Positions 52,976 through 55,217 of a DNA stretch of 64,000 nucleotides are shown piece by piece (the first letter of the stretch is position 1; each line of letters opens with the position of its first letter). Below the pieces are notes generated by a model. That model made no database searches. It saw only the letters and a list, made by a program, of their open reading frames with translations, and was not told the DNA's origin. The DNA comes from an uncultured Candidatus Saccharibacteria bacterium (GTDB lineage Bacteria; Patescibacteriota; Minisyncoccia; Phycocordibacterales; UBA9973), in assembly GCA_964544225.1 (NCBI GenBank), contig CAZIZK010000002.1, positions 69,452 to 133,451 on the forward strand, written 5' to 3'. A program made the position numbers and the translations under genes.

Positions 52976-53044
52976 ATAGCTATTATACCACAATAAAAAA
53001 GAACCCTTTTACCAGACAGCGACCCGGTCGCTGGTTGGTTTGAC

Positions 53045-54347: not shown

Positions 54348-55010
54348 TTACTTCAAACTGATACTCTCCAATATTACAGGCTTTACTGGGCGGTCATTTG
54401 GGCCTGTTGCAACATTGTTGATAGCTGTTACTACGTCCATACCGGCTGTTACCTTGCCAAATACTGTGTGCTTTGTATCAAGGAAATTGTTCGGAGCAAC
54501 GTTGACGAAGAATTGGCTACCGTTTGTATTTGGGCCAGAGTTGGCCATTGATATAGTGCCTACATCGTTGCGGTTTGTAGATGTCAATTCATCGTCGAAC
54601 TTGTACCCTGGGCCACCTGTACCCCAATAATCAGCCCTGCTGTCATCCTTTGTCAGTGGGTCGCCACCTTGGTTCATAAAGCCTTTTATAACACGGTGGA
54701 ACTTTGTGCCGTTGTAGAAGCCCTCCTTTGCTAATTTGGTAAAGTTGTCCACTGTGCGTGGTGTTGTGTTACTAAACTCGATAGTGATGTCGCCCATGTT
54801 TGTGTGTAATGTTGCTTGCATAATCTTCTTGTTATTTACTTCTTTATTAATAATTGTTTTATCGCCTGCGTCTGTCGCCTGTGTTGTATTGTCTAATAAT
54901 TGATTGATATCTTGGTTATTTACATTGTCGGACTGTTTATTCCTAATAGCAAAGTAAGCCATACCACCTATTACTAATAATATAATAATACCTATTAAAA
55001 CTTTTTTCAT
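54348..55010 (-). CDS. ppiB: Peptidyl-prolyl cis-trans isomerase, cyclophilin type (membrane-anchored)
   Basis: FHRVIKGFMNQGGDP and ..GTISMANSGPNTNGSQFF cyclophilin motifs. N-terminal TM. Confidence 0.85.
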   Translation of the reverse strand: MKKVLIGIIILLVIGGMAYFAIRNKQSDNVNNQDINQLLDNTTQATDAGDKTIINKEVNNKKIMQATLHTNMGDITIEFSNTTPRTVDNFTKLAKEGFYNGTKFHRVIKGFMNQGGDPLTKDDSRADYWGTGGPGYKFDDELTSTNRNDVGTISMANSGPNTNGSQFFVNVAPNNFLDTKHTVFGKVTAGMDVVTAINNVATGPNDRPVKPVILESISLK

Positions 55011-55047
55011 AAGAAGATTATATCATAAAATAAAAGAAAAACAGGCC

Positions 55048-55113
55048 ATAGGCCTGTTACTTCTTTACTACCTTCTTTGGCTTCTTTGTCTCCTTCTTCT
55101 GCCTGTTATCACC
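55048..55113 (-). CDS. 21-aa lysine-rich micro-ORF (MGKGDNRQKKETKKPKKVVKK), possibly bTHX-like
   Basis: Sits between an extended -10 (TTGTGGTATAAT, minus strand 55152-55165) and a strong minus-strand terminator overlapping its stop (caggcctatggcctg + ttttcttttatttt). The MGKGD N-terminus resembles ribosomal protein THX. No SD. Too short for the ORF track. Confidence 0.25.
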
Positions 55114-55159
55114 TTTTCCCATATAATTATTTAAAATTAACTTTTAATATATTTATTAT

Positions 55160-55192
55160 ACCACAAAATAAAAAACACAGATGATAGAATCT
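55160..55192. terminator. Bidirectional terminator (aacacagatgatagaatctgtgtttttt)
   Basis: Hairpin with A-run and T-run downstream of the SWIB gene. Confidence 0.6.
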
Positions 55193-55217
55193 GTGTTTTT
55201 TACTAAACGAATGTTTA

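Follow-up and report, generated by a model that had tools for sequence, protein, structure and literature searches.

The stretch analysed here is a 64,000-nt window of contig CAZIZK010000002.1 (assembly GCA_964544225.1), from an uncultured Candidatus Saccharibacteria bacterium, and it raises the question of whether the interval between its SWIB-domain gene and its cyclophilin gene holds a further gene, a lysine-rich micro-open reading frame (micro-ORF) of 21 codons, and, if so, what the product does. All locus coordinates refer to this window, and the micro-gene, the SWIB gene and the cyclophilin gene all lie on the minus strand. The segment 55166-55028 is a free-standing expression cassette, and the micro-ORF within it is almost certainly a real, translated and conserved gene. 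Judging from sequence comparisons, it represents, in its shortest version, a very large family of highly basic microproteins that is absent from the four libraries searched for a known family, namely Pfam, NCBIfam, PHROGs and the PDB sequences. The cassette and its boundaries are laid out as follows.

55166-55028, minus strand: free-standing expression cassette, made up of an extended -10 element, a leader without a Shine-Dalgarno (SD) sequence, a 21-codon ORF and an intrinsic terminator
55155..55166, minus strand: extended -10 promoter TTGTGGTATAAT (TATAAT at 55160-55155), 32 nt 5' of the ATG, called from its sequence and from motif over-representation
55123..55148, minus strand: predicted A/U-rich 5' leader of ~26 nt, with no SD and with a predicted transcription start
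55057..55122, minus strand: micro-ORF of 21 codons plus TAA (66 nt; ATG at 55122, TAA at 55059-55057), encoding MGKGDNRQKKETKKPKKVVKK, called from its sequence, a family hidden Markov model (HMM) and homologues
55028..55058, minus strand: intrinsic terminator, with the hairpin AACAGGCC-UAU-GGCCUGUU at 55058-55040 and a U-tract at 55039-55028
55168..55203, minus strand: terminator of the SWIB gene (-16.3 kcal/mol, z = -7.78), the upstream boundary
55475-55218, minus strand: SWIB coding sequence (SWIB domain, E = 1.4e-31)
55017..55025, minus strand: extended -10 element of the cyclophilin gene, TGATATAAT, leaderless-type, 6 nt 5' of its ATG, the downstream boundary
55010-54348, minus strand: cyclophilin coding sequence (Pro_isomerase, E = 4e-49; ATG at 55010)

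An earlier reading made from the letters alone (the sequence-only reading) had proposed a self-contained unit between the SWIB terminator and the cyclophilin gene, and this proposal holds, since the micro-gene has its own promoter and its own terminator and is bounded on both flanks. The same reading correctly described a 66-nt ORF on the minus strand but placed it 9 nt away, at 55113-55048 instead of 55122..55057, and the extended -10 element that it reported at 55152-55165 is present at 55166-55155, separated from the ATG by a 32-nt, A/T-rich spacer. Its claims of a strong terminator overlapping the stop codon and of a separate -10 element for the downstream gene (at 55025-55017) were both confirmed. 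The terminator hairpin pairs 8 bp, five being G-C, around a loop of 3 nt and is followed by UUUUUCUUUUAUUUU; its energy of -11.9 kcal/mol (z = -3.55) was equalled in none of 200 shuffles. The hairpin at 55040-55058, a perfect palindrome, obtains a terminator score on either strand, with no convergent plus-strand gene close by. The product is extremely basic, as had been noted, with 1 Arg, 1 Asp and 1 Glu, although its Lys residues number 9 and not 10; the net charge is ~+8, and the only hydrophobic residues are two, both Val. AlphaFold returned no secondary structure for the peptide (predicted local distance difference test score, pLDDT, 65; predicted template modelling score, pTM, 0.11). Eight of the nine Lys codons are AAG, compared with 48% AAG in the long ORFs of the window (p = 0.015), a preference that fits avoidance of slippery poly-A runs in translated sequence.

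Homologues of the micro-ORF were identified in related genomes and in large sequence collections. The SWIB protein of the window, a stand-alone SWIB/MDM2-domain protein of 85 amino acids (aa), was used to find more than 570 relatives, of which the best 80 were kept as related loci (L001-L080); these best 80 all come from Paceibacteria/Parcubacteria-type genomes of the candidate phyla radiation (CPR), at 79-93% identity. The host of the window is itself a Paceibacteria (CPR) bacterium, and in this group the SWIB protein is extraordinarily conserved. Homologous micro-ORFs, lying on the SWIB strand and 3' of SWIB, were found in five of the 80 loci (MAKGTGARKEVKKPKKAKKK, MAKGMSHKKEKKKPKKAKK, MAKGNESRRKEKKKPKKNKK, MGKGNNAYRKDKKKPKKDKKK and MAKGETHRKEKKKPKKK). 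Among the 19,712 stop-to-stop segments of the window and the 80 related loci, the family HMM matched the window ORF at E = 3.3e-9 and five further segments at E ≤ 1.5e-5 (the five CPR homologues and the window ORF spanning E = 3e-9 to 1.5e-5), with the next segment at only E = 0.89. The family is defined by a module of 17 residues counted from the initiator Met, M-[AG]-K-G-x3-4-[RK]-K-[ED]-x-K-K-P-K-K, encoded as a free-standing gene. Total lengths range from 17 to 51 aa: the CPR forms (17-21 aa) consist of the bare module with no tail, and in other members it is extended by lineage-specific tails (to ~50 aa), the longer of which hold conserved non-basic motifs (IAAAPSQK...W.P; DRPMPPVTTV.PRGK). 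The window peptide falls within this definition and aligns gap-free to members of 29-44 aa.

A degenerate DNA pattern derived from the family motif was applied to IMG/VR contigs and to metagenome stretches. It yielded ~45 family members in the viral contigs of IMG/VR, and 107 of its 120 matches in the metagenome stretches were family members, with GC contents of 0.28-0.72 and lengths of 18-51 aa. A profile search of a 5.8-billion-protein collection, with a cut-off of E ≤ 0.01, returned 1469 clusters, every one of them annotated as 'hypothetical' and none with a Pfam domain, and a HMMER search run without a word index over 1.84 billion representative proteins returned 425 clusters at 50% identity. 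One metagenome contig carries two near-identical copies 3.6 kb apart (L218, 677-748 and 4313-4384, plus strand; MAKGQQ[KR]KNKEVKKPKKKPTPAI). Some short IMG/VR members (L096, L104, L107, L110, L127, L148) end in a Cys (...KKPKKSC, ...GC, ...MC, ...GEC, ...GGKC), which hints at modification, or at a disulfide or metal contact. Two CPR loci have, close to SWIB, a different type of basic micro-ORF, of 37-39 aa and with no PDB sequence match (MAKRITGLDKKRTTRSKKTKKRLAIKKDMLAAKAAKKRK and MAKRRTGVGKYRKTHSRKTKKRLAIKHAMLAARRKRF; L043, minus strand, start 4038 in reverse-complement coordinates, and L054, minus strand, 1781).

The way in which family members vary bears on whether the micro-ORF is selected as protein. 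The DNA pattern preset eight of the 17 motif positions (M1, K3, G4 and KKPKK), and these residues are therefore unusable as proof of conservation. At the pattern-free positions that precede x-KKPKK, [RK] is found in 34 of 42 members, [KR] in all 42 and [ED] in 41, with Arg drawn from both CGN and AGR codons and the acidic GA[AGTC] codons varying at the third base alone. Even the preset positions vary synonymously, since AAA and AAG occur at ~1:1 at the four Lys of KKPKK, and Gly and Pro each draw on their full set of four codons. Aligned members differ in length by whole residues. Of 71 high-GC members, 67 have a canonical SD ahead of the ATG, as do 38 of 40 from two proteobacterial subfamilies. 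Among low-GC members, a terminator-like hairpin follows 23 of 57, compared with 15 of 285 control positions. The sequence-only reading had named a frame that relatives fail to keep as evidence that would count against a gene, and no such failure was seen; the frame is conserved with synonymous variation, and the micro-ORF is, by these substitution patterns, under protein-level selection. In the Burkholderiales-type subfamily (...KKPKKDTS.PK...DRPMPPVTTV.PRGK), a conserved small hairpin, ccccatgtcgggg, immediately precedes the SD within the 5' leader (L188, L205, L211 and L250; 40-15 nt 5' of the ATG).

The expression signals of the micro-gene match those of its genome. The motif TGTGGTATAAT occurs in the window four times exactly and ten times with at most one mismatch, compared with a shuffle expectation of 2.75 +/- 1.62, and none of 100 shuffles reached ten; at 52992 a gap of 6 nt, a leaderless distance, separates it from the start codon of a rhodanese-like gene (ATG). 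This over-representation, together with the position before another gene, indicates that TGTGGTATAAT is the promoter consensus of the genome. Sites of this type are found on the minus strand at 52992-52982, 46411-46401, 43859-43849 and 55025-55017, and many genes of the window begin 5-8 nt past a -10 element in a leaderless-type arrangement. A generic two-hexamer promoter scan did not list the micro-gene promoter, because it has no good -35 element. TG-N-TAnnnT elements are also present 28-33 nt 5' of the homologues in L008, L182 and L270. SD-like motifs precede only six of the 62 long ORFs of the window, most starts following A/T-rich sequence (...aaatatATG) or a -10 element, and hence a micro-ORF without an SD is normal for this genome.

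Carriers of the family include Patescibacteria, Alphaproteobacteria (Hyphomicrobiales), Betaproteobacteria (Burkholderiales), many unidentified bacteria, plasmids and phages. Four RefSeq members, all annotated as 'hypothetical protein', are plasmid-borne: WP_256477141.1 (Bradyrhizobium), WP_173909579.1 and WP_259060943.1 (Microvirga) and WP_170119688.1 (Aquabacterium); nucleotide matches to the family were also obtained on plasmids of Methylobacterium and Methylocystis. Cultivable genera are among the carriers (Bradyrhizobium, Microvirga, Aquabacterium and, on the nucleotide matches, probably Methylobacterium and Methylocystis), which makes the function directly testable. A tblastn search with phage-type and 29-aa members against the INPHARED phages and PLSDB plasmids gave no match, probably because of low-complexity masking, and longer high-GC members did match plasmids. 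A full-text literature search, using motif strings and CPR ribosome structures, found nothing on a MAKG...RKE.KKPKK family. The prediction that the gene would be missed by standard annotation was borne out by the family at large: gene callers are blind to most of it because most members fall under the 30-codon floor, and many of those in the protein collection are either exactly 29 aa, at that floor, or N-terminally over-extended calls with the motif at the end. The case illustrates how many conserved genes of fewer than 30 codons escape annotation pipelines.

The surroundings of the family gene vary widely. The neighbours at the metagenome loci comprise 123 proteins in 111 Pfam families, with no family seen more than three times, and a search of 72 + 123 flanking proteins against Pfam and PHROGs detected no conserved neighbour; the few that repeat are SWIB (two members), cyclophilin (two members) and phage structural proteins. 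The gene is almost always an isolated unit. Phage copies are genuine phage genes, surrounded by head, tail-fibre and virion-structural genes and in several cases encoded on the reverse strand. In five loci they adjoin genes for transfer RNA (tRNA), tRNA-Thr or tRNA-Tyr, and the tRNA-Thr of one phage lineage is common to T4-like cyanophages. In L084 (11480-11554, plus strand), ARAGORN calls a phage tRNA-like gene with the four-base anticodon gacg, which may be a frameshift-suppressor-type tRNA or an artefact.

What the peptide does can be approached from its composition, its conservation and its closest precedents. With a charge of ~+8, two hydrophobic residues and predicted disorder, it would not fold alone and so must act on a polyanion; that it acts by binding nucleic acid is, in our judgement, probable. 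The near-invariance of the 17-residue module from the CPR to Proteobacteria and phages points to a universal interaction partner and implies that the target itself is universally conserved, and the strict module, together with the conserved non-basic tail motifs, argues for a defined docking surface and against non-specific charge neutralisation. We favour, with a confidence somewhat short of even, the reading that the product is a free-standing polycation whose docking site is a conserved nucleic acid, the likeliest being that of the ribosome. The peptide would lay its conserved basic module onto a polyanionic surface; the target would be ribosomal RNA (rRNA) within the ribosome, and the peptide itself a loosely bound, exchangeable accessory or a stress-time microprotein, comparable in principle to bTHX, bS22, bL37, Sra and phage-borne bS21 but with no sequence kinship to any of them. 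That the ribosome specifically is the target remains a tentative proposition drawn from analogy.

The ribosome is preferred in the first place because, among conserved polycationic proteins of bacteria, the best-known ones of about this size, 20-35 aa, are ribosomal (bTHX, bS22 and bL37, with the slightly longer bL36 and bL34). It is preferred also because of the precedent of bS22 in F. johnsoniae and because phages carry exchangeable ribosomal proteins. The tRNA genes beside phage copies in five loci lend the family a context that leans towards translation. The F. johnsoniae bS22 (Fjoh_1533) is a 30-aa protein with an isoelectric point of 12.7 that was annotated as hypothetical until cryo-electron microscopy (PMC7797042). 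Like the window family, bS22 (Mycobacterium; F. johnsoniae) and bL37 are polycationic proteins, of 24-33 aa, that were called hypothetical or missed and were found only by cryo-electron microscopy (PMC7797042), and they are thus a precedent for what the family could be. Identity with either was rejected, as no sequence similarity was found in comparisons with PDB chains of Mycobacterium, Cutibacterium and Flavobacterium ribosomes and with NCBIfam; moreover, a helix of bS22 is lodged between h44 and h45, whereas the window family is predicted to lack one and has a central Pro. Phage bS21 and bL12 are likewise small basic proteins common to bacteria and phages, and phage bS21 lies on the reverse strand inside a structural gene block, as do several phage copies of the family (PMC9723584). 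Unlike any member of the window family, phage bS21 is a recognised ribosomal protein whose incorporation has been demonstrated (PMC6375957).

A more specific version of this proposal, rather unlikely to be right in all its parts, is that the family would be a ribosome-targeting microprotein that has so far gone unrecognised and moves horizontally, an exchangeable ribosomal peptide of accessory or hibernation type common to CPR, Proteobacteria, other phyla, plasmids and large phages. Under it, the CPR would keep the bare 17-21-residue rRNA-docking module, and phages, as has been suggested for their bS21, would use the peptide to tune the ribosomes of the host, with its gene placed near tRNA genes or in late blocks. 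Sra (RpsV) and RMF offer a parallel, as non-essential, free-standing small basic genes, some of them stress-linked, which would be compatible with the groESL, csp and trehalose islands in which plasmid copies are found; they differ in showing no sequence similarity to the family, and no EcfG-type promoter was seen 5' of 40 proteobacterial family members. If the peptide is ribosome-associated, it would be a widespread mobile microprotein added to the bacterial translation apparatus, with relevance to the stripped-down ribosomes of the CPR and to phage takeover of translation.

Several observations weigh against a ribosomal role. Only one of the 123 neighbours is a ribosomal protein, bL20, and the gene shows no linkage to ribosomal or translation operons. 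Its patchy distribution, its plasmid paralogues, the two copies in L218 and its carriage by phages are atypical of a core ribosomal protein, which would be expected in a ribosomal or translation operon and in single copy. The family profile matches no chain of a solved ribosome, although none of the species with solved ribosomes is known to be a carrier. In the CPR the gene is found near SWIB in seven loci (the five of 80, the window and L192), and KKPKK resembles the minor-groove motifs of histone H1 type; both features favour DNA binding. On plasmids the gene sits in islands of stress type, with groESL, a cold-shock protein, trehalose synthase and phasin, which fit a general stress protectant equally well. 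Lys-rich low-complexity sequence inflates similarity scores, and eight of the 17 motif positions were preset by the DNA pattern.

Binding to DNA is the alternative that survives best, though we regard it as unlikely. The peptide would be a nucleoid-type polycation that neutralises, compacts or protects chromosome, plasmid or packaged phage DNA through its KKPKK-type module, and, if so, would be a rare protamine-like peptide in bacteria and phages. Its disorder and strong cationic charge suit such a role, as do the phage copies among head, tail and virion genes, which would fit a peptide associated with packaged DNA, and the plasmid copies in stress islands. The position of SWIB speaks for it in Paceibacteria: SWIB lies 5' of the micro-ORF, on the same strand and within 2.5 kb, in five of 80 loci and in the window, compared with ~0.5 loci by chance (a figure that assumes one randomly placed copy per ~0.8-Mb genome), and in L031 the micro-ORF begins just 15 nt past the SWIB stop. 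This link is weak in the unbiased sample, however, as the only one of ~57 low-GC members, counted over the metagenome and viral sets, to have SWIB nearby is L192, at a distance of 3.4 kb, and bacterial SWIB proteins have themselves no proven part in DNA transactions. The likeness to the (S/K)PKK motifs of histone H1 and to protamine-like peptides extends to the KKPKK core, the disorder, the high charge and the SWIB proximity in the CPR. Yet those motifs are repeated and fast-evolving, and condensing peptides are usually of low complexity, whereas the family has a single motif within a strict 17-residue module whose invariant Gly, acidic residue and Pro are kept from the CPR to Proteobacteria, and the conserved non-basic motifs of its tails suggest docking on a defined surface.

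A less likely alternative still, and one to which we give little credence, is a general RNA or polyanion chaperone or stress protectant, similar to a hydrophilin or a cold-shock accessory, that acts on mRNA, tRNA or polyphosphate with no defined machine as its target. Among the plasmid copies of L163 (Bradyrhizobium sp. 186), L292 (Microvirga terrae) and L164 (M. ossetica), those of two genera have groES/groEL at a distance of 1.6-2.7 kb, and another has as neighbours a cold-shock protein gene and those for trehalose-6-P synthase, MgtC/SapB and spermidine synthase, with several further tiny hypothetical genes around it; a phasin gene is also found near alphaproteobacterial plasmid copies. In one 84-aa metagenome protein (P0201), the family member runs into a CspA-type cold-shock domain, through either an assembly frameshift or a natural fusion, and this read-through indicates that the family gene and a cold-shock gene abut in that genome. 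The multi-copy, accessory and mobile distribution and the tRNA genes that adjoin phage copies are also in keeping with a chaperone. Against it, no EcfG-type general-stress promoter was detected 5' of 40 proteobacterial members, the CPR copies have constitutive-looking consensus promoters, and the very strict conservation of the motif argues for a specific site.

The identity proposed in the sequence-only reading, a bTHX-like ribosomal microprotein, did not survive comparison, and descent from bTHX by loss of its central RGKI.RG.YG core is very improbable. Both features noted in that reading are real: the peptide begins with MGKGD, which is also how T. thermophilus THX starts (BLASTP, 6/10 identities over residues 1-10, E = 5e-4 in a single comparison), and the RGKI(W/F)RG(T/S)YG core of THX is missing from the window peptide, as it is from every aligned family member. 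bTHX (PF17070; Thermus, chloroplast PSRP4/bTHXc) further resembles the family in its size of 21-27 aa, its extreme basicity, a basic C-terminus of xPxK type (both end in a [KR]P[KR]K-type segment) and its having been overlooked by annotation. However, PF17070 was unmatched at E ≤ 10 by the window peptide and by 18-19 other members, and the family profile missed all THX chains of the PDB, from which T. thermophilus THX as query (its sequence verified against the PDB) readily retrieves THX, PSRP4 and bTHXm chains. With hhalign, the family aligned to T. thermophilus THX over columns 1-7 alone (MGKGDxR), at a probability of 3.6%, so that the similarity stops at residue 7, and the conserved RKE.KKPKK core of the family has no counterpart in THX. 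The shared start is itself a minority variant, since position 2 is Ala in 31 and Gly in 11 of 42 members, position 5 is mostly Asn and the family consensus begins MAKGNN or MAKGEQ. THX membership was rejected on these grounds; bTHX itself occupies a cavity at the top of the 30S head.

Other known families fared no better. The window peptide matched no Pfam family at E ≤ 10 and nothing in NCBIfam, and ~25 members searched against Pfam, NCBIfam and PHROG gave no family match, the lone report being a non-significant DUF4519 (E = 7.8). In the PDB, the family profile and three single members found no chain at E ≤ 10 except an irrelevant mitoribosomal L43 (E = 0.22). A resemblance to SERF/4F5 (PF04419) lies in a superficially similar N-terminus (MARGNQR...R.KN.KK versus MAKGQQRSNRE.KKPKK) and in a small, disordered protein that is nucleic-acid-binding in character. 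It was rejected, as hhalign gave a probability of 0.4% and PF04419 matched none of the nine members scanned at E ≤ 10; human SERF2, scanned alongside, was matched at 1.6e-11. A known RNA family was likewise rejected, since Rfam gave nothing but sub-threshold noise for the region and, over the full window, a single tRNA.

The weakest explanation, largely refuted by the comparative data, is that the micro-ORF is a Lys-rich leader peptide or attenuator for cyclophilin (a sensor of Lys-tRNA or of stalling), or a fortuitous ORF in an untranslated small RNA: its nine Lys codons, the terminator that directly overlaps its stop, the same-strand gene downstream and the adjacency of a cyclophilin homologue in L207, L270 and L182 as well as in the window would suit it, but cyclophilin has its own promoter past the terminator and a leaderless-type start, so that the micro-ORF is no leader for it, and in those three other loci the micro-ORF lies 3' of cyclophilin. 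On this promoter layout and comparative context the attenuator was rejected; in addition, no antiterminator structure is evident (z = -1.57 for the whole transcript), the genes downstream are unrelated across the family, the amino-acid sequence is kept while codons vary, an SD precedes the ORF in SD-using lineages, and the region has no Rfam match. Elsewhere in the window, the segment 48001-52000 has a GC content of 0.29, compared with ~0.39-0.43 in the remainder, and may be a foreign island.

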